Positions 1,881-58,254 of a stretch of DNA of 64,000 nt are shown here, piece after piece (the first letter of the stretch is position 1; the number at the start of each line of letters is the position of its first letter). The DNA comes from Shigella phage SGF2: the sequence record MN148435; one strand, given 5' to 3'. The translations under genes were made by a program, and so were the position numbers. The notes under the pieces are model-generated. The model saw nothing but the letters and a program-made list of their open reading frames with translations, had not been told where the DNA came from and ran no database searches.

Positions 1881-4073
1881 ATGTCTAGAGAATTAATGCC
1901 CAAATCTGGCATAATGATGCCCCACGTAGTTGTAACCAGAGATGCGGCTGTTGTTGGTGTTTCTACTGTAGATGGACAGGCCGGGGCTATTGACCTCACT
2001 GGAAAGTATTTACAGAAAACCGATGCAGCTGCTACATATCAGACTAAAGTGGAAGGTGCGTCTAAAGATTTTGTACTGGATTCAATTCAACCTATTATGT
2101 CTGGTGCCCTATTCAGGGAAGACCCTTGGGTTGTGAATGATACACCTTTCCGTTCTACTGGAGCTAATGGTGTAGAGTCAGTAGATATGATGAAAGTTAC
2201 TACTGATAACTCAATTAAGATTGGCAGTTATGCTTCTTCTGTTCAGGGGGTAGAGATTCACTCTGCTGGTCGTCTTCAAGTAGTAGACCAGAATGACTCT
2301 GGAGTAGAAACTAAGTATCCAGTTTATTCTAAACGGTATCGTCCAGAGATTGAGGATTTGCCTTTTGCTGCAATTGGTTCTTATGTCAAAGATTCCAAAG
2401 GCCGCACTATTGGGGTTAATCGTACAGGTATTAACTCTGATATCAAACAACTTACTCAGAAGGTAACGTTTACTCAGCCAGTAACTGTTGCTGATGCTGT
2501 TGGTGATTATGATGCAGTCACTTTGAGGCAGCTTCGAAACAGTGGTGGTGGTTCTGGTGGTCCTACAATGAGTGGCATTTCTAACTTTGGGATTGGGGAT
2601 TTTCACCTACGGGATAGTCGAGCTTTCATTCCAGCTTTTGAAGTGACATCTGATGGTCAGCTTCTTAATCGTGCTGACTACCCAGACCTTTGGGCATACG
2701 CTCAACTACTATCCCCAATTGAAGACTCTCTTTGGTTGTCTAATATCTATCAGAGAGGTAGATACTCTACAGGTGATGGCACCACCACTTTCCGTGTCCC
2801 TGACCGAAATGGTATTCAGCCTAACTCTCTTTCAGCTCTTTATGGACGAGGTGATGGGGGTGCTTCCGCAGCTAACGGTCAAGTGTTTGACTCTGCGGCC
2901 CCAGACATTATAGGCTCTGTTGCAGCATACTCTGCTGGAACTTATGCCCAGGTTTTTGGGTTAGCTACTAATGCCTTTGAGTCTAACAATGCCCTCTTTC
3001 CTGAGGGTTCAGGTGATACAATACCTCCGGGGTCTGGGCCAGTTACTGGTCGAAACAACACCCTTGAGTTCAAAGCTTCCAGATATAATGGAATTTATGG
3101 TCGTAGTAATACAGAGATTATGGGTCGTAACTTTGTTGGTGTTTGGACTATTCGTGCTAATGGTGGGTTTGTCGCTGCTAATACTTCTTGGAGTGTCATT
3201 AACAGTGATAGCGCAGCTCCGGCTTTAAATACTTCTGTGGTTGGTGGTAAGGTAGAATCTAAATATACTAACCCAACCTCTTCCCAATATGCTCGTATGT
3301 ATATTTCCTCTTCTTGGGGAAGTGTTTGCTCTGCCGTGATCGAAGCACAGGGTGCAAGTACTCACGCTTATAAGTTTTATGAGGATGGCACTGTTGATTT
3401 TAGGCAGTCTGGTAAGACAAACCCATTCCGCATGTACACACCAACTGGAACTTGGACTGGACTGACGGATGCGGGGTCAAACAATTTAACCACCAATGGA
3501 ATGGATAGGGTGGCGATTTCTAGTGGCTCTGACACAGTGGTGCGTGGGTACTCTATTGGAGGATCTAAACCTAATGGTTATCCAACCAAGGTTGGGTATC
3601 ATATGTATTTGCCGGGAAGTAACGCCTTTGGTATCGCCTGTACAACTATTGGAGGAGACAACGGAAAGTTCTGTCGATATTTTTACGACATAGACGGGCA
3701 GATGTATGGCTCAACTGATTATGGAAACTTTAGCTATACAAAGAGTGGTGTCTCGGATGAAAACCTGAAACATAACATTGTTGATATTGATGCAGAAAGA
3801 GCTATTGAAGTAATAAAAGGACTGAAGTTCAAATCCTTTGTTTACAACGATGATGAGAGGAATCGATCTCGTCGTGGTATCATTGCACAGCAGGCAGAGA
3901 CGGTAGAACCTCTGTATGTCAAGACTCGCAAATACCCAGGAATGGAGAAAGGCTCTCCAGAAATTGAGCAGAAAGAGCTAGATACTACTCCAATGCTCCT
4001 TGACACTATGCAAGTAGTTCAAGATCTTCTGAAGCGTATTGAGATTCTAGAATCAAAACTAGCAGAGAAGTAA
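1881..4073 (+). CDS. tail fibre protein with collar-like domain and C-terminal intramolecular chaperone (peptidase S74-like)
   Basis: RBS AAGGAG before ATG; collar-like motif DGQLLNRADYPDLWAYAQ...GDGTTTFRVPDRNG; C-terminus NIVDIDAERAIEVIKGLKFKSFVYNDDERNRSRRGIIAQQ typical of self-cleaving fibre chaperone domains. Confidence 0.8.
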   Translation: MSRELMPKSGIMMPHVVVTRDAAVVGVSTVDGQAGAIDLTGKYLQKTDAAATYQTKVEGASKDFVLDSIQPIMSGALFREDPWVVNDTPFRSTGANGVESVDMMKVTTDNSIKIGSYASSVQGVEIHSAGRLQVVDQNDSGVETKYPVYSKRYRPEIEDLPFAAIGSYVKDSKGRTIGVNRTGINSDIKQLTQKVTFTQPVTVADAVGDYDAVTLRQLRNSGGGSGGPTMSGISNFGIGDFHLRDSRAFIPAFEVTSDGQLLNRADYPDLWAYAQLLSPIEDSLWLSNIYQRGRYSTGDGTTTFRVPDRNGIQPNSLSALYGRGDGGASAANGQVFDSAAPDIIGSVAAYSAGTYAQVFGLATNAFESNNALFPEGSGDTIPPGSGPVTGRNNTLEFKASRYNGIYGRSNTEIMGRNFVGVWTIRANGGFVAANTSWSVINSDSAAPALNTSVVGGKVESKYTNPTSSQYARMYISSSWGSVCSAVIEAQGASTHAYKFYEDGTVDFRQSGKTNPFRMYTPTGTWTGLTDAGSNNLTTNGMDRVAISSGSDTVVRGYSIGGSKPNGYPTKVGYHMYLPGSNAFGIACTTIGGDNGKFCRYFYDIDGQMYGSTDYGNFSYTKSGVSDENLKHNIVDIDAERAIEVIKGLKFKSFVYNDDERNRSRRGIIAQQAETVEPLYVKTRKYPGMEKGSPEIEQKELDTTPMLLDTMQVVQDLLKRIEILESKLAEK

Positions 4074-4077
4074 TATA

Positions 4078-4095
4078 AGCCCCTTCGGGGGCTTT
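4078..4095 (+). terminator. hairpin terminator AGCCCC-TTCG-GGGGCT followed by TT
   Basis: perfect stem with UUCG loop immediately after fibre gene stop. Confidence 0.45.
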
Positions 4096-4165: not shown

Positions 4166-4384
4166 ATGAAAATGATGAAACAAGCTGCATATGGTTTAAT
4201 CTGTTTAGGCGCAGGTGTTGTGGTATCAACCGCAGTTCCTGTAAGCGCAGTTCATCCATTAGTAACTGTCCCTGCTCCAGTAGAGAAGCTTAGCTCTCAA
4301 TGCAAGCAGAGAACAATTCAAAATAACCTAGTTGTTATTTGTCCTGATGCTGAATCTAACGCTCTGAGAAAGATACTACCTTAA
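4166..4384 (+). CDS. small single-TMD/signal-peptide protein directly upstream of lysozyme (holin candidate)
   Basis: 72 aa; hydrophobic stretch AAYGLICLGAGVVVSTAVPVSAV; RBS GGAGA; position next to endolysin. Confidence 0.3.
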   Translation: MKMMKQAAYGLICLGAGVVVSTAVPVSAVHPLVTVPAPVEKLSSQCKQRTIQNNLVVICPDAESNALRKILP

Positions 4385-4412: not shown

Positions 4413-4904
4413 ATGGATAACGCCGCATTGCCACCTGTACAACTAAACTTAAGCCCAGCTGGAATGGAATTCATCATGAAGCACGAGGGTATGAGAACCA
4501 AGGCTTATAAAGATTCCGCAGGTATCTGGACTATATGTGTAGGGGCTACGCGCGATATGAATGGTTATCCGGTTAGACAAGGATTAACGTATTCTATAGA
4601 GGATTGTCTAGCTCTGCTAGATAGAGACACACAAGACTCTGTTCGTGCTACTCAGAAGAACATAAAGATTCCTTTGCTAGTTCATGAGTTTGATGCACTC
4701 ACTTCTTTCAACTTCAACGTTGGCAGTGGGGCTTTGAGCACATCTAAGTTAAGGAAGGTTATCAATGGAGAAGTGAAAGGGGATGTTTATTCCGAATTTC
4801 TTCGTTGGGATAAAATAACGGTCAGGGGAGAAAAGCAGAGAAGTCAGGGTCTTCATAACAGAAGGGTTGCAGAAGCTGATCTTTACACTGAAGGTAAATA
4901 TTAA
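4413..4904 (+). CDS. endolysin, T4/lambda-type lysozyme (GH24)
   Basis: RBS AAAGGAGG; EG...KAYKDSAGIWTICVGATRD... catalytic-region pattern of GH24 lysozymes; 163 aa. Confidence 0.85.
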   Translation: MDNAALPPVQLNLSPAGMEFIMKHEGMRTKAYKDSAGIWTICVGATRDMNGYPVRQGLTYSIEDCLALLDRDTQDSVRATQKNIKIPLLVHEFDALTSFNFNVGSGALSTSKLRKVINGEVKGDVYSEFLRWDKITVRGEKQRSQGLHNRRVAEADLYTEGKY

Positions 4905-5729: not shown

Positions 5730-8700
5730 ATGGCGCTGTATCCAATAAAGTCGTTAGGTGCTGTAGGCGTTATCGCTGATCAGGCTCCGACAGACTTAGC
5801 TCCTAATGCTTTCACTAATGCTATAAATGCTCGATTTGTTGAGCAGAGAGTATTTAAGACGGGGGGCAATGCCCCTCTTTCTTATGTAGATGAAGATAAG
5901 GATTTAACCCCTCTGTCTTTCGTTTCTATGCCTTTCGATTATTATAGCGCAGGTAATAGCTTTCTTGTTGTAGGTACGGATAAGAAGTTATATAAACTGA
6001 CAGATGAAAGCTTGACTGATATTAGCCGTAAGGTTGCTACAGTCACTAAGAAGGCTTCTGCCTCAATTAAGATTTATCCAGTTGTTTCTCAGATCGTTCC
6101 TAAAGAATCAACTATCTCAATGAACTTCAATCAGACCAAGAATCTAGAGGTTTCTCTTCTCCCTGCTGATGCTAACAATACTGATCTTATTTGGGAGGTT
6201 AGTAACTCGGCCTATGGAAGTGTTACGGTAGACCCTAGTGACTCTAAACTTGCTACTCTAACATCTTTTGAGAAAGAGGGTAATCTTGTAGTAACTATCT
6301 CTACTGCTAATGAATCAGTAGTGGCTCAGATTGCTGTTAATATCATCGATGGTGATTCAGGCATCTTCTTGAGTCAAGATACTGTTACAATTCGTAAAGG
6401 AGGGACTACTACTCTCACGGCTGTTACTGGCAAGACTCCTGTAACTTGGTCCAGCAATAACGCTTCTATTGTATCTGTAACTCCTAACGCCAACTCTTTA
6501 ACTGCTGTCATTACAGCGAATGGAGAAGGTAATGTAACAATCACTGCTGATAACGGAACTAAGACTGCTTCTTGTGAGATTGTTTCCATTCCTCAGATTG
6601 ATAGTATCTCTTTAAGCCAGTCAGATGTTATTGTGAGTAGGGGTTCTCAGTATATCTTAACTGCTACCCTTTCTCCTACTAATGCTCCTAATCAAAATAT
6701 TACTTGGACCTCTTCTAATCCAAATATTGCAACAGTATCAGGGACTAGCACACAAGGGACAGTAAATGCTCTACTTGCTGGTTTTACTGAGATTACAGCT
6801 ACCACTGAAGAAGGTAACAGAGTTGCTGTCTGTACTGTACGTGTAGATTTAGCTGGAAGGACAATGAGAACAAGTGCTATGGCATTTGCTGCTCCTATGT
6901 CAGAGTCAGTAGAAACTCAAGAGGAAGAAGTAGTAACTCCTCCTGAAAGCGAAGAGACGGTTTATTTTGCTGAGCCTACATCCGGTATTGATACGTCAGG
7001 GATGTATGAAGGTAACAACTTCTATGACTACTCTAACGTGAATGACATTGAAGGTTTTGCAAGAGCTTCTTTACTGGCAACCCCTCTGTCATCTGTAACC
7101 TTAGATATTGTCAGCGCTTCTCTTGATGTTGGTGAAGAGATTGTCATTACAGCCACAGCTTCTCCAGAAGGTGAGTACTCTTATCAGTGGTCTGTTGATA
7201 AAACTGGTTATGTTTCTACAACTTCAGTCACTGGTAAATCTATCAAACTGGTTGCTCTTCGTAAAGGGGAGATTAACGTAACCTGTACTGTCAGTCAGAT
7301 GACTCAGAAAGATTACGATGCTTTTGATGACTATCCTTGGTATCACGCTGTTATCTCTAACTGTGCAGTTGCTACAACTCACTATGAAATTCCTCAGGTA
7401 AAAGAATTCGAATCAGAATACTTTGTAGACCTTCCGGGGTGGGGTGAGCAAACAGTTGTTGATAACGATGGAAACCCTTCAGTCAAGAAGTTTAACTGGA
7501 AATGTGAAAGAGTAAGATCTTTTAACAACCGTCTTTTTGCTCTGAATATGAGAGAGGCTAATGCTTCTGGTGTTACCACTAACTATCCACTTCGTCTTCG
7601 TTGGTCTAACTTTGCCAATGAGAACAAAGCTCCTACACTGTGGGATGACTTTGCCTATGATCGAGTTGTGTCTTCGGACTTGGCTTCTAACATCGTAGGA
7701 CAGACTCAGGCTTTAGAGAATGGGTATGCTGGTTACATTGACCTAGCGGATTCTAATGGTAGTTTGATTGATATCCTACCTCTTAAAGATTACTTGTTCG
7801 TTTATACAGAGTTTGAAACGTATATTGGCTCTCCTACTAATAACACGTACCAACCTCTAATGTTCAAGAAGCTCTTTAACGACTCTGGTATCCTTGCTCC
7901 TGAGTGTGTGGTTGAAGTAGAAGGTAGTCACTTCGTAGTTACTCAGAACGATGTAATCTTACACAATGGTGCAACCAAGAAGTCAATTGCATCTAACCGT
8001 GTCAAGAACATGTTGATTAACGAGGTGTGTCTGGTTAACCCTCTAGCAACTCGAGTACACTTGCATCAGGATAAGAAAGAAGTTTGGGTTCTCTATGTAG
8101 GTCCGGGAGAGCCGAAAGAAAGCTTCGCTTGCACTAAAGCTGCTGTATGGAACTACGAGTTTGATACTTGGTCTTTCCGTACTATCCCTTATGCTCAGTG
8201 TATCGGTCTGGTTGATCCTCCTGTTTTAGAGAGAGGTCCAATCTGGTCTGACTTCCAAGAGATCACTTGGGATGATCCATCTATCAAAGAACTTGTTTGG
8301 AGAAAGGATGCAACAAACTTTAGACAGAGGGTTACAATAGTAGGTTCATTCTTGAGGGGATTCTATCAAGTGGATGTTGGTGCTTTGGATTACTTCTATG
8401 ATAGGCTTAATGATAAGGTTATAGAAAAACCACTGGAGATGAGGTTAGAAAGAACTGGTATGGATTTTGATAACATCACTAACGAATGGAATCAGAAACA
8501 TATCAACAGGTTCCGACCTCAGACAACTGGCTCAGGCACTTATACATTTGAAGCTGGAGGTAGTCAATTCTCAAATGAATATGGACACCCACACACATCT
8601 AAGACTTATACAATCGGTGTTGACAGGCATGTCTCGGTGAGACTGAACCATCCATACCTTTTCTATAATGTTATAGATAATGATGTTAACAGTAATGCTG

Positions 8701-10804: not shown

Positions 10805-11587
10805 ATGGCAATTAAAATGGGTATTGAAGAACTAGACCCAATGGTGCAACAGGCTTCAAAGAAGTATGGAATACCAGCTGCTTTGATTCATGCTGTAATC
10901 CAAAGAGAGTCTAGTGGACGTCCTAAAGTAGCCTCTGGAACTGGTCCTGTAGGTTTAATGCAGATCAGTAAAGGATTGGCTAAAGACTATGGATACAAAC
11001 TAGAAGATAGACTGGACCCAGCAAAGAATATTGACATGGGTGCTCGTTATATCAGAGATAACTTAAAAGCTTTTAATGGTGATGTTAAGAAAGCGATGGT
11101 TGGTTACTCTGAAGGGACAGGGGGTGCTAGGCAGATGTTTGCTGGTAAGAAAGGGTTTACTCCTCAGGCGCTTGACTCAATGAACAACAAACATTTTCTC
11201 CCTTTCTATGGTGATGCTGCTTCTCAGATTGCTAACCCTGTTGGAGCTTTGCAAGCTGTTCAACCAGTTAACCAATTTAGTCCGGATACCCTTGATAGGG
11301 AGAAGGCTGCTCAAGCTCCGACTCAGGCAGAAATTGCTGCTTCTAAGACTGGTGCTTTAGGTGGCAATCCAGTAGAGTTTTACTCTGATGAAGTTCAGGA
11401 AGGTGAGGACCAGAAGCCTCAACAGAACTTTGGTAATGCAGTATTAGGGGTAGCTGCTATGCTTGCTGGTAAACCTCCTACTTCTCAAACAGTTCAGAGA
11501 GTGAGTACACCTCATGCAGCAGGTTCTCAGTACAGTCCACAAACACAAGCAGTGCTTAGACGTTTGGCTAGCATTGGTGTTAAGTAA
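10805..11587 (+). CDS. virion-associated lytic transglycosylase (SLT domain)
   Basis: motifs IHAVIQRESSGRP...GLMQIS characteristic of SLT/GH23 catalytic region; RBS AAGGAG. Confidence 0.75.
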   Translation: MAIKMGIEELDPMVQQASKKYGIPAALIHAVIQRESSGRPKVASGTGPVGLMQISKGLAKDYGYKLEDRLDPAKNIDMGARYIRDNLKAFNGDVKKAMVGYSEGTGGARQMFAGKKGFTPQALDSMNNKHFLPFYGDAASQIANPVGALQAVQPVNQFSPDTLDREKAAQAPTQAEIAASKTGALGGNPVEFYSDEVQEGEDQKPQQNFGNAVLGVAAMLAGKPPTSQTVQRVSTPHAAGSQYSPQTQAVLRRLASIGVK

Positions 11588-15309: not shown

Positions 15310-15376
15310 GACCTAAGTCCTGCCTTCTATAATGTATATAGGGGGTAGGACATTTTTATTTATAAAAGGAGACGTT

Positions 15377-22209: not shown

Positions 22210-23695
<1,486 letters not shown>

Positions 23696-23696
<1 letters not shown>

Positions 23697-23956
23697 TACT
23701 CTATTCCACGCTCTTTCAGAGCTTCTAACAATCCATTGTGATTAGCAGCACATTCTGTGTACTGATCCTGATACCACTCCAACGTAGTGGCTAGTGCCTT
23801 TCCTTGAGCACTCTCTAAAAGAGGTAGGTCAACCCTACATTCAGCTTTTAGGTTTGTTGGTAAGGGCATTGATTGCCTGCTGTTGTCGCTCGTTGAACAA
23901 GCTGACATACTCATCACTAGCGCAGACATTATAAAAAACTGGTTTAGTTTTCTCAT
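23696..23956 (-). CDS. o-spanin (Rz1-like outer-membrane lipoprotein)
   Basis: start MRKLNQFF...; lipobox-like MSAC then Pro-rich periplasmic part; embedded out of frame in 3' end of i-spanin gene. Confidence 0.6.
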
Positions 23957-24191
23957 AATGCATCTCTTTATAAACGGTTTCCGTGTTCTTCTTCCAGCTA
24001 GATAAACCGGTAAGAACTCTCTGGGCAACTTCATCAGCTGCCTTGCTTCTTTCAATCTCTAACTCTTGCTGGTGCTTCTCTTTGTCCAGATTACTACTGT
24101 CTGTTTGATATTCGTTAAACTTCATACCACCAAAGAATACAAGAGCCGAGAAAATGATAAACCCTAAGTTATCACTTAACGTGTTTTGCAT
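23841..24191 (-). CDS. i-spanin (Rz-like)
   Basis: start MQNTLSDN after GGAGA RBS; N-terminal TMD LGFIIFSALVFFGG; coiled-coil periplasmic domain; overlaps o-spanin. Confidence 0.6.
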   Translation of the reverse strand: MQNTLSDNLGFIIFSALVFFGGMKFNEYQTDSSNLDKEKHQQELEIERSKAADEVAQRVLTGLSSWKKNTETVYKEMHYEKTKPVFYNVCASDEYVSLFNERQQQAINALTNKPKS

Positions 24192-24203: not shown

Positions 24204-24227
24204 GAAAAAAGCCACCCGAAGGTGGCT
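24204..24227 (-). terminator. rho-independent terminator (minus strand)
   Basis: minus-strand AGCCACC-TTCG-GGTGGCT followed by TTTTTTC; between SSB and spanin genes. Confidence 0.55.
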
Positions 24228-24248: not shown

Positions 24249-24995
24249 TTAGAATGGGCTATCGTTGTCGTCTTCGTAAGTAGAAGCAGGCTCTTTATCA
24301 ATCGTAGGGATTGAAGGAGTAGCTTCTTTCTGTTCTGTTTCAGAAGCACGAGTAATTTCACGACCAGCCAGAGGCATGTTCTTAGCGTCATTAGCTTGGG
24401 TAAGCAGGTTGCGCTGGAACGGGAACATCAGTTGATAGGATGCTACGTTCTCATCGGTTTCCGCATACGGTTCGAAGAATACCAGAGGACTACGAGCTTC
24501 ACCAACTGCTGCACGATATTTAGTTGGGATTGGAGAAATGGTCTTGATGGAGTTTTTAACTTCACCAGCTTTGTTAGTGTAAGAGTTAACCAGAATGTTA
24601 ACAGGCTGACCTAACAGCACATCCTTAAACCAAGACAGATCACCTTTCAGTGCTTGAATGCTTGGGTCAATCATCTTGCAGAGATCAAGGATACCAGAGT
24701 TCTTAGCTCGCGGGTTTACATCATAACTCTTGAACTGGCAAGCAGGACGTGGCTCTAATGCCTTACCATCGGAATCTTTACCAGTAGCATCAACACCAAT
24801 TAGCTCGAAAGCCAAATCCATACGGAAAGCCGGATTCTTAGGGGTTACTGCTTTGGTCTTCGGGTCAATCCAAGGGTCACGATTGTGAACACCCAAACCT
24901 ACTACACGAACGATACGTGCTTCGTATTCACCATCAGGGATTACATCGTAGTTGGATTTACGGGAAGCAGTTGCGATAGTTGGAATCATAGACAT
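24249..24995 (-). CDS. single-stranded DNA-binding protein (T7 gp2.5-like size, acidic C-terminal tail)
   Basis: 248 aa ending YEDDNDSPF (acidic tail with terminal Phe typical of SSBs); strong AT-rich upstream region. Confidence 0.5.
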   Translation of the reverse strand: MSMIPTIATASRKSNYDVIPDGEYEARIVRVVGLGVHNRDPWIDPKTKAVTPKNPAFRMDLAFELIGVDATGKDSDGKALEPRPACQFKSYDVNPRAKNSGILDLCKMIDPSIQALKGDLSWFKDVLLGQPVNILVNSYTNKAGEVKNSIKTISPIPTKYRAAVGEARSPLVFFEPYAETDENVASYQLMFPFQRNLLTQANDAKNMPLAGREITRASETEQKEATPSIPTIDKEPASTYEDDNDSPF

Positions 24996-25412
24996 ATTTT
25001 AACTTCCTTATTTAATTTGAAAGATTGTTGCTCTCTTTGAGCGGTTATGTATAGTATACATTACGCTTATACCGATAAGAGTACTATATAATATAAGTAT
25101 CTTTGGTAGTAGATATAACACACTAGTAATGTATATATTGTATAGCTGATAAAGCTATTGCAGGCTTGTATATTGGGCAATTCACAGAATCCCTTGCAAG
25201 TACCGAAGGGCAGGAGCCACCTGCGAGATAAAAATAGAGAATTAAGGAATCCTTGATTTAGGTTGTAGGGACTCCTAGGGACTTTGATTCTCTATTTAAA
25301 AAGAATATTAATTACTTACTACCTAAATAATTAACTAACTTACTTAAACCAAATTCAATAAGAATAGATAAAAAGATTATTCCTAAGAAAGCTAAAAAGT
25401 ATAGAATATAAG
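24996..25412. promoter_or_regulatory. AT-rich structured intergenic region upstream of SSB gene
   Basis: 417 bp without ORF; palindrome ATGTATAGTATACAT (25047-25061), TAATGTATATATTGTATAGC (25127-25146), long inverted repeat AAAAATAGAGAAT...ATTCTCTATTT (25232-25300). Confidence 0.4.
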
Positions 25413-31720: not shown

Positions 31721-31776
31721 TTAGAACTCCTTAATATATCAGTGTACACTAAGGAGTATACATTATAAGTTACTGT

Positions 31777-53904: not shown

Positions 53905-54204
53905 TCACCACTCTTTACCGGTTGTAATCGTAGAGCCACCACACCACAACGCTGTATCAATCACAACATTGTCTGGCGTAGACTTCTCTTCGTTGATAGA
54001 AGGGTTAGCATTAGAGCAGGTTGCTCCGTTCCAGCGCATATCAATCTCACCAGAAGGAACCTTCTCACCTTTATGCCAGCGAGATACACAAATACCATCC
54101 ACTGCTACTGCACACCATCCATCAGGACGGCTCTGTACGCAGCCTGTAAGGGCCACACAGACAAGGAAGATACAGATTAAGGATATTACACCACCCCAAC
54201 TCAT
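53905..54204 (-). CDS. Cys-rich lipoprotein (superinfection-exclusion candidate)
   Basis: signal peptide MSWGGVISLICIFLVCVALTGC with lipobox LTGC; 8 further Cys. Confidence 0.5.
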   Translation of the reverse strand: MSWGGVISLICIFLVCVALTGCVQSRPDGWCAVAVDGICVSRWHKGEKVPSGEIDMRWNGATCSNANPSINEEKSTPDNVVIDTALWCGGSTITTGKEW

Positions 54205-57864: not shown

Positions 57865-58254
57865 TTACTCCATAGAGCTATTATCAAACACTAAATCACC
57901 ACAATACATAGGATTGGCATACCATTTTGGCACCCCTTCGCTCTTACTCTGAAAGTAAGTCCCACTGTACAGCGGAACATAATTCTTCTTAAGGGCACGT
58001 TTAGCAAGTCGCTCGCTTTCTCCAATGGCTTGCTTAGTCATCGGATTTTTATCACGAATCAGCTTTACATAACGTTTATAAGGTTTCTCCTGTTTTAATA
58101 GTACCGGAATCCACTCAAACTGGTTCTTTTGTCTTATCACCTGTTCAGCGGTCAGTTTTCGTTGAGCCATTCTATTTATCACGGTATCCGCAACTAAAGC
58201 CTTACATGCGGTTGGCTGGTTCCCTGCCTCATAATAAATAGTCAATGTCAACAT
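57865..58254 (-). CDS. SleB-like cell-wall hydrolase domain protein
   Basis: TIYYEAGNQPTACKALVADTVINRM...KNQFEW resembles SleB/Hydrolase_2 core. Confidence 0.5.
   Translation of the reverse strand: MLTLTIYYEAGNQPTACKALVADTVINRMAQRKLTAEQVIRQKNQFEWIPVLLKQEKPYKRYVKLIRDKNPMTKQAIGESERLAKRALKKNYVPLYSGTYFQSKSEGVPKWYANPMYCGDLVFDNSSME

Follow-up and report, generated by a model that had tools for sequence, protein, structure and literature searches.

A probable two-component spanin pair of overlapped architecture, encoded apart from the endolysin gene in a phiEco32-like phage

Among the described two-component spanins, lambda Rz and Rz1 are a type II inner-membrane protein and an outer-membrane lipoprotein, respectively, with Rz1 encoded in the +1 frame wholly within Rz, and both genes belong to the S-R-Rz cassette. 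In P2 LysB/LysC, the outer-membrane subunit (o-spanin) gene begins inside the inner-membrane subunit (i-spanin) gene in another frame and passes its stop codon, and this pair is reported to be the final element of a contiguous lysis cassette. The T4 pair PseT.3/PseT.2 (genes pseT.3/pseT.2) represents the separated architecture and lies away from the holin gene t and the endolysin gene e (Kongari et al. 2018, PMC6139136).

The closest described system is that of phage phiEco32, which was placed in the overlapped class, with its i-spanin in a 15-member "JH2" family that includes Felix O1 and its o-spanin in a group of four (NJ01, ECBP2, KBNP1711 and phiEco32) (Kongari et al. 2018, PMC6139136). 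The supplement of that study gives "Phieco32 ovl -1 35417 35768 35272 35533 ... 116", that is, the i-spanin at 35417-35768, the o-spanin at 35272-35533 and an overlap of 116 nt, and annotated o-spanin starts of related phages were shifted upstream there to regain the lipoprotein signal (Kongari et al. 2018, PMC6139136). A transmembrane segment in the i-spanin and a lipobox in the o-spanin have also been described in recent Kuravirus genome papers, and in one of these, the coordinates given for holin, endolysin and o-spanin amount to a separation of ~19 kb on opposite strands. The spanin pair, its architecture and its distance from the endolysin gene are already known from this literature.

We analyzed a 64,000-nt stretch of Shigella phage SGF2 DNA (MN148435; the window), which shows ~96% DNA identity to phiEco32-like phages (Kuravirus, Gordonclarkvirinae); the 3-kb region around the spanin pair is 95-97% identical to more than 60 of them. 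Position x of the window corresponds to approximately x + 11,577 in phiEco32. A sequence-only reading had placed a two-component spanin pair at 23696-24191, and this interval proved to be the exact union of two minus-strand open reading frames (ORFs), one for an i-spanin and one for an o-spanin (Table 1). From homology, sorting signals and gene context, we assign the locus to a two-component spanin of a phiEco32-like Kuravirus, of overlapped architecture, with a probability of roughly 0.88. The genes are those of phiEco32 gp39/gp38: identity to the phiEco32 proteins is 96.6% for the i-spanin and 98.8% for the o-spanin, and the two phages agree in protein length (116 and 86 aa), extent of the overlap (116 nt), strand and neighboring genes. 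Only a few substitutions distinguish the two, the window being from another isolate within this phage group.

Likeness to P2 LysB/LysC concerns the architecture only, and no sequence similarity is claimed. Compared with lambda, the subunits follow the same logic, but the o-spanin extends past the i-spanin gene and the pair lies outside any cassette. The mature phiEco32 o-spanin is predicted to be ~46% helical, whereas lambda Rz1 has been characterized as unstructured (Kongari et al. 2018, PMC6139136). The T4 o-spanin has a predicted C-terminal helix, as does the family in the window, although the T4 genes, compared by description only, do not overlap.

Table 1. Positions of the spanin genes, other muralytic or lysis genes and transcription signals in the window
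Feature	Position	Strand	Basis or remark
Putative holin gene, phi32_16 homolog, 72 aa	4166..4384	+	PHROG 11161, annotation
GH24 (T4-lysozyme-type) endolysin gene, phi32_17 homolog	4413..4904	+	PF00959; PHROG 7
SLT transglycosylase gene, phi32_22 homolog, third muralytic domain	10805-11587	+	"transglycosylase, contains SLT domain"
Phage sigma factor gene, phi32_gp36 homolog	22589..23236	-	PHROG 1740, E 6e-46; annotation
Macro-domain (Appr-1-p processing) gene	23256..23696	-	PF01661, E 4e-9
o-spanin gene, longer correct form of phi32_38, 86 aa	23956..23696	-	ORF, lipobox, PHROG 2425
Dual-coding overlap, 116 nt	23841..23956	-	i-spanin C-terminus; o-spanin signal peptide and N-terminus
i-spanin gene, phi32_39 homolog, 116 aa	24191..23841	-	ORF, PHROG 1152, hydropathy
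Terminator-like hairpin, AGCCACC-UUCG-GGUGGCU then U6	24204..24227	-	terminator scan
Gene 40 homolog, 248 aa, no assigned function	24249..24995	-	first gene after P40
gp36-holoenzyme promoter element TAATGTATA (phiEco32 P40)	25055..25063	-	motif search, published P40
SleB-like cell-wall hydrolase domain gene, phi32_117 homolog	57865..58254	-	PF07486 Hydrolase_2

Reading frames and sorting signals of the pair

The i-spanin matched PHROG 1152, "Rz-like spanin", with an E value of 3.8e-37. Its N-terminal hydrophobic segment comprises residues 9-23 (LGFIIFSALVFFGGM; Kyte-Doolittle 2.25), and hydropathy revealed no second such segment in the protein, so that a type II inner-membrane protein with an N-terminal transmembrane domain and a periplasmic C-terminal domain is predicted. 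The shortness of the transmembrane core, ~15 residues, counts against this assignment. No basic residue precedes the segment and the N-terminus is net negative, a feature that was likewise flagged for NJ01 (Kongari et al. 2018, PMC6139136). Because the N-terminus lacks a basic residue, the positive-inside rule alone cannot fix the topology, and the predicted orientation is taken from the family. Of the 88 periplasmic residues of the phiEco32 i-spanin, 54 are helical according to the supplement of Kongari et al. (2018, PMC6139136). Cys89, within the motif EKTKPVFYNVCASDEY (NVCASD), was conserved across all homologs aligned. Pfam gave no significant match for either spanin, and only a sub-threshold one, DUF3290, for the i-spanin.

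The o-spanin begins with its signal peptide, MRKLNQFFIMSALVMSMSA, followed by CSTSDNS. This signal consists of an MRK n-region, a 15-residue hydrophobic core and the lipobox M-S-A-C20, with Ser at +2; a rule-based scan recognized it as a lipoprotein signal with a lipobox, an invariant Cys and no Asp at +2. At position -3, the lipobox has Met or Thr, which counts against the assignment, Leu being the commonest residue there. The predicted mature lipoprotein has 67 aa and the conserved residues Cys41 and Cys69, of which Cys69 was found in all homologs aligned and Cys41 within Gordonclarkvirinae and some others. Each subunit is thereby predicted to offer at least one periplasmic cysteine for disulfide linkage.

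A six-frame scan of the 64-kb window under a strict lipobox rule gave the o-spanin as its sole match. This rule demanded a basic n-region and so passed over a phi32_106-type lipoprotein; the relaxed rule yielded this one extra match, an unrelated early-gene lipoprotein at 53905-54204, which was rejected as a second spanin since it has no i-spanin-like neighbor. No other spanin candidate was present in the 64-kb window, which covers all but ~13.5 kb of the genome. Nor does the locus resemble a unimolecular spanin of the T1 gp11 type, as its 86-aa lipoprotein has no C-terminal hydrophobic segment, and no ORF of the unimolecular type adjoins the endolysin gene.

The pair had been described as embedded, after the manner of lambda Rz/Rz1. 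Instead, the o-spanin frame, which is +1 relative to that of the i-spanin, starts within the i-spanin gene and continues 145 nt beyond its stop codon, the overlapped arrangement of P2 LysB/LysC. To examine selection on the two frames, we aligned eight genomes from three genera (Kuravirus, Nieuwekanaalvirus and Suseptimavirus). Upstream of the overlap, variability was highest at the third codon position of the i-spanin frame (pi of 0.29, vs 0.13 and 0.08), and beyond the i-spanin stop it was highest at the third position of the o-spanin frame (0.37, vs 0.17 and 0.04). Nucleotide diversity within the overlap was 0.082, half that of the flanks (0.166 and 0.193). Because codon periodicity switches at the i-spanin stop and diversity is halved in the overlap, the alignment indicates that both frames are real overlapping genes under selection. 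A sigma-70-like match at 23956-23928, also within the overlap, was judged to be a by-product of the coding sequence.

Homologous pairs and the other lysis genes

Both subunits have homologs in Felix O1-like phages (Ounavirinae). In phage finno, gp43 is 33% identical to the i-spanin (BLASTP, E 2e-15) and gp42 is 29% identical to the o-spanin (BLASTP, E 3e-12). The finno genes have the same overlapped architecture, but with an overlap of 107 nt, and share with those of the window the i-spanin motif EKTKPxFYNVC, the o-spanin lipobox MS[AG]C and the o-spanin motif LE[WF]YxD...C; finno differs in that a putative lysin gene lies only ~1.2 kb upstream of its pair. The 68-nt stretch 23890-23957 of the window and the spanin overlap in Felix O1-like phages share ~82% DNA identity. 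In the clustering of Kongari et al., the phiEco32 and Felix O1-like o-spanins fall into separate families, and according to those families the pair could be a mosaic of i- and o-spanins of different descent. We rejected this possibility, because both subunits as well as the 68-nt piece of DNA match the Felix O1-like pair, which argues that the pair travels as a unit.

At ~30-40% identity, the lipobox Cys remained aligned in homologs from Felix O1-like, Erwinia, Proteus and E. coli phages and from one Yersinia phage; a second Yersinia phage, YenM324, stands outside that alignment and has MSGC in its o-spanin ORF. The distant o-spanin homologs also retain the C-terminal motif LE[WFY]YxDxYxxC (LEWYxDxYxxCA). 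In several of these phages, the homologous pair closes a lysis cassette: the order is holin, endolysin, membrane protein, i-spanin, o-spanin in E. coli phage Bas82 and holin, peptidase, i-spanin, o-spanin in YenM324, and in Proteus phage RS10pmA and Yersinia phage P778 the pair is similarly placed after the endolysin gene. This cassette-final position is the strongest contextual support for a role in lysis.

In the window, by contrast with these cassettes, the spanin pair and the GH24 endolysin gene are 18.8 kb apart and on opposite strands, close to the ~19 kb that the sequence-only reading had stated; linkage within a lysis cassette, which is typical though not obligatory, is absent. Spanins and endolysin are ~12 kb apart in phage Privateer. 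The endolysin matched PF00959 with an E value of 1.5e-31 (109.7 bits), and its translation contains the pattern E25-X8-D34-X5-T40, the predicted catalytic residues of a Phage_lysozyme. Its N-terminus has no convincing hydrophobic segment (maximum 19-residue Kyte-Doolittle value, 0.82). Directly upstream lies the gene annotated as a holin, which matched PHROG 11161, "holin", with an E value of 4.8e-50 and has one N-terminal hydrophobic segment; for the phi32_16-type putative holin, only a signal peptide was reported in the ZCEC16 paper. Both genes are situated between tail-fiber genes in the rightward late block and form a two-gene unit, with the spanins 18.8 kb off on the other strand. The earlier statement that the lysis genes do not form one cassette thus holds for the spanins but not for the endolysin, which is not isolated. 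Some records label the GH24 endolysin as a SAR endolysin.

Two further muralytic domains were found. The SleB-like protein, which had been proposed as a possible second enzyme of this kind, scored 32.2 bits against PF07486 (cutoff, 27) and is 99% identical to phi32_117. It is encoded in the early region, has neither a signal peptide nor a transmembrane segment, and gave no match to PDB sequences. The SLT transglycosylase gene lies among tail and DNA-ejection genes, and internal virion and lytic tail proteins are among its PHROG matches. Small hydrophobic ORFs are scattered through the window by hydropathy, in agreement with the small membrane proteins said to be dispersed there.

Transcription unit around the pair

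In the leftward direction, the phiEco32 annotation lists gene 40, gene 39 ("Rz-like spanin"), gene 38 (hypothetical, 174 nt), gene 37 (macro domain) and gene 36 (sigma factor). This gene order, with the sigma factor gene in the same leftward unit as the spanin genes, bears out the placement of the pair in a "middle" minus-strand block. At a TAATG junction, the ATG of the macro-domain gene overlaps the o-spanin stop codon. The macro-domain gene is present between the o-spanin and sigma factor genes in the window, phiEco32 and SU10. In the annotation of phage LAMP it is absent from this position, and the sigma factor gene follows the o-spanin gene directly, overlapping its stop codon; alignments suggest that 172-1 and Ptacy1479 likewise have no intervening macro-domain gene. 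The gene 40 homolog is kept as far out as 7-11 and Privateer.

phiEco32 gp36 recognizes a single element, tAATGTAtA, at six published promoters (P6, P13, P26, P40, P58 and P68), P26 having been classed as late and P68 as middle. Copies of AATGTATA lie in the window at 15331 (+), 25055 (-), 31757 (-) and 35929 (-). The homologs of genes 26 and 68 begin shortly after the sites at 15331 and 35929, which represent P26 and P68, and the site at 31757 is assigned to P58 by position. The remaining site, ~60 nt ahead of the start codon of gene 40, is P40, which is listed for phiEco32 in Table S3 of Lavysh (2022). This element is conserved in three genera, and the 41 nt around it recur unchanged in SU10 as the "middle promoter" located "between CDS37 and CDS38".

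The terminator-like hairpin lies between gene 40 and the i-spanin ribosome-binding site, in a 66-nt intergenic stretch with a folding energy of -18.5 kcal/mol (z = -2.9). Its stem was identical in 8 of 8 other Gordonclarkvirinae loci examined, the only change being U/C in the loop, and in SU10, where an HNH gene is inserted upstream, the hairpin still adjoins the i-spanin gene. In 7-11 and Privateer, prolate podophages of distant relationship, a terminator-like hairpin likewise comes after the gene 40 homolog, with the sigma factor gene immediately beyond it, and the endolysin gene is located two or three genes upstream of gene 40. Across the wider group, then, the neighborhood of gene 40 holds lysis genes, and in the window the spanin pair sits within the module of gene 40, hairpin and sigma factor gene.

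The leftward cluster with the sigma factor gene is an experimentally defined middle class in phiEco32, and for this reason the spanins are probably made from mid-infection onward. The hairpin with its U6 tract could stop most P40 transcripts before the spanin genes, so that the hairpin may lower the level of the spanins, which gp36 feedback at P40 may sustain.

Alternative readings and the timing of lysis

The locus could be read as a single gene, with only the i-spanin frame real and the 86-aa ORF due to chance, or with a true second product of 57 aa that is no lipoprotein and has no signal peptide. Such a reading would fit most GenBank records, which carry a 174-nt CDS for the 57-aa "phi32_38" (also ShigP1_00076, "o-spanin") or, in some cases, one shorter still, and the long start is preceded by a weak Shine-Dalgarno-like sequence (AAAGAG). 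We consider it exceedingly improbable, since the 29 upstream codons with the n-region, the hydrophobic core and the lipobox Cys are conserved even at ~30% identity, whereas the internal Met with which the 57-aa annotation starts (MPLPTNLK...) is not, being Ile in Bas88 and Phe in finno. In all eight genomes of the three genera, the 86-codon frame, the basic n-region and a [MT]-S-[AS]-C lipobox are kept. The match of the o-spanin to PHROG 2425 (E 3.5e-27) extends from residue 6 to residue 84, and tblastn matched at least 80% of the query in 252 of 252 matching phage records; among the Gordonclarkvirinae matches listed, 15 of 15 (77-100% identity) begin at residue 1, and distant matches begin at residues 1-8. 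Starts of this kind were also explicitly corrected by Kongari et al. (PMC6139136). A real pair of a membrane protein and a lipoprotein might still serve mainly a non-lytic purpose, such as superinfection exclusion or envelope remodeling. The literature searched contained no experiment on the phiEco32-type spanin family, and we know of no member that has been tested genetically or biochemically; this circumstance, the location in a middle-class leftward block far from the endolysin gene, and the translational coupling to the macro-domain or sigma factor gene would favor such a role. We nevertheless think it distinctly improbable, because clear homologs occupy the last place in holin-endolysin-spanin cassettes of unrelated phages, the pair shows all the bioinformatic hallmarks of two-component spanins, the 64-kb window holds no alternative candidate, and the T4 spanin genes are also located away from those for holin and endolysin.

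According to another reading, the separation serves a dedicated timing, with the hairpin and its U6 tract acting as a regulated attenuator that keeps the spanin (and sigma factor) low until late in infection. The stem shared by three genera, its persistence beside the i-spanin 5' region in spite of the HNH insertion, and the hairpins at the equivalent place in 7-11 and Privateer speak for regulation, and a regulatory or stabilizing role was proposed for the 7-11 hairpin (Lavysh et al.). However, C(UUCG)G hairpins occur generally between the genes of this genome (the hexamer was observed 29 times vs 17.4 expected), one of them also precedes the holin gene, and the hairpin could equally well be the 3' end or a stabilizer of the gene 40 transcript. 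As the accepted model gives the spanins no need of timing of their own, we regard a dedicated attenuator as very improbable. A related speculation is that the pair has been captured into a sigma-factor autoregulatory unit consisting of P40, gene 40, an attenuator hairpin, the spanins and gp36, such that spanin dosage would be tied to hairpin read-through and sigma feedback, and a non-lytic envelope role in mid-infection would be possible. The chance that this is correct seems very small to us; if true, lysis genes would here be regulated in a way not described for other phages.

For the preferred reading, a two-component spanin that acts in lysis, we infer localization, complex formation, time of expression and membrane disruption as follows. 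Leftward transcription from P40, together with read-through from upstream promoters, would cross the UUCG hairpin, and the spanin genes would be co-transcribed with the macro-domain and sigma factor genes. The N-terminal transmembrane segment of gp39 would anchor it in the inner membrane, with a largely helical domain projecting into the periplasm, while gp38 would be exported, lipid-modified at Cys20 and cleaved by signal peptidase II. Binding between the periplasmic domains of gp38 and gp39 would create a bridge threaded through the peptidoglycan, probably stabilized by disulfides via the conserved cysteines. The complex would accumulate from mid-infection onward and stay inert until the late lysis genes of the tail block release the GH24 endolysin; once the peptidoglycan is removed, the spanins would fuse or disrupt the outer membrane.

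Spanin complexes are described as accumulating trapped in the peptidoglycan meshwork and acting only after the endolysin (Kongari et al. 2018, PMC6139136, citing Rajaure et al.). Because spanins are inactive until the endolysin acts, the holin, acting upstream, would determine when lysis occurs, and spanin expression would not. The separation of spanin and endolysin genes had been taken to raise a question of timing control; under the accepted model it would pose no such problem, and T4, as well as relatives of the phage in the window, also scatter their lysis genes.

The significance of the pair beyond annotation hygiene is small, as it has already been published for the phiEco32 group. Most GenBank records of these phages either lack an o-spanin altogether or carry a truncated one, without its signal peptide and lipobox, and the 86-aa start at 23956 merits propagation across them. 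The comparison also illustrates that lysis genes need not cluster: the same spanin family that is found inside canonical cassettes elsewhere lies beside the sigma factor gene in these prolate (C3-morphotype) podophages. In Grimontviridae relatives of the prolate podophages, it is the endolysin gene that is located in the sigma-factor neighborhood.

Gene order around the spanin genes in relatives

Comparison with phage 7-11 (L017) and Privateer (L018), prolate podophages that are distant from the window phage, revealed a gene order that both share (see table). The position of the spanin pair in the window therefore matches a neighbourhood where lysis genes are found repeatedly in the wider group. 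In SU10 (L011) and some relatives, an HNH insertion lies upstream of the hairpin and the i-spanin gene, leaving the junction between hairpin and spanin undisturbed.

Coordinates of features in the window and in the compared genomes
Feature	Genome	Position	Strand	Remarks
Holin-annotated gene	window	4166-4384	+	single N-terminal hydrophobic segment, then VSA|VH motif
Endolysin, 1-2 small genes, gene-40 homolog, terminator-like hairpin, sigma factor	7-11	1520-3870		gene order
Endolysin, 1-2 small genes, gene-40 homolog, terminator-like hairpin, sigma factor	Privateer	1259-3874		gene order
HNH homing endonuclease gene	SU10	2151-2564		between gene-40 homolog and hairpin/i-spanin
Second lipoprotein candidate	window	53905-54204	-	99 aa; MSWGGVISLICIFLVCVALTG|C; early region
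SleB-like Hydrolase_2 protein (phi32_117 homolog)	window	57865-58254	-	among early genes
SLT-type transglycosylase (phi32_22 homolog)	window	10805-11587	+	PHROG 12507
Exact AATGTATA match	window	25128-25135	+	66 bp from P40, divergent to it
Exact AATGTATA match	window	8541-8548	-	motif search
C(UUCG)G tetraloop hairpin	window	24210-24227	-	intergenic, before i-spanin gene
C(UUCG)G tetraloop hairpin	window	4077-4094	+	intergenic, before holin-annotated gene

Annotation of the o-spanin and holin genes

When the GenBank records L001-L007 were compared, the o-spanin (window 23696-23956, minus strand) was found to be annotated in most deposited genomes as a fragment of 57 aa or 41 aa that lacks the signal peptide, or to be labelled 'hypothetical'. 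This misannotation was already pointed out in 2018, and the error still persists in GenBank. As judged from its sequence, the N-terminus of the holin-annotated product resembles a cleavable signal peptide; likewise, only a signal peptide was seen in the holin-annotated protein of a 2026 Kuravirus paper. The true holin of phiEco32-like phages, and hence their lysis timer, may still await identification.

Other lipoprotein and peptidoglycan-degrading candidates

The second lipoprotein candidate is rich in cysteine, lacks a basic n-region, matches PHROG 4281 and is a homolog (74% identity) of phi32_106, a 'putative phage lipoprotein'. No i-spanin-like gene was found beside it, and it could be a lipoprotein of the superinfection-exclusion type.

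The SleB-like protein has neither a signal peptide nor a transmembrane segment, and a PDB sequence search with it returned no match. According to a published table, phages 7-11 (gp111) and GAP52 (gp023) have it too, and because these two phages reportedly lack the holin and the GH24 lysozyme, its gene is part of a conserved core that reaches deeper than the endolysin. The SLT-type transglycosylase, the third peptidoglycan-degrading domain in the window, is encoded among genes for the tail and DNA ejection, and it probably serves in infection, not in lysis.

Promoter motif matches and hairpins

Neither of the two additional AATGTATA matches is a published promoter of the phage sigma factor gp36, the chance expectation for exact matches being ~2.7. 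The hexamer CTTCGG occurs 29 times in the whole window vs 17.4 +/- 4.2 expected, and the C(UUCG)G hairpins are similar to the intergenic CUUCGG hairpins described in T4.
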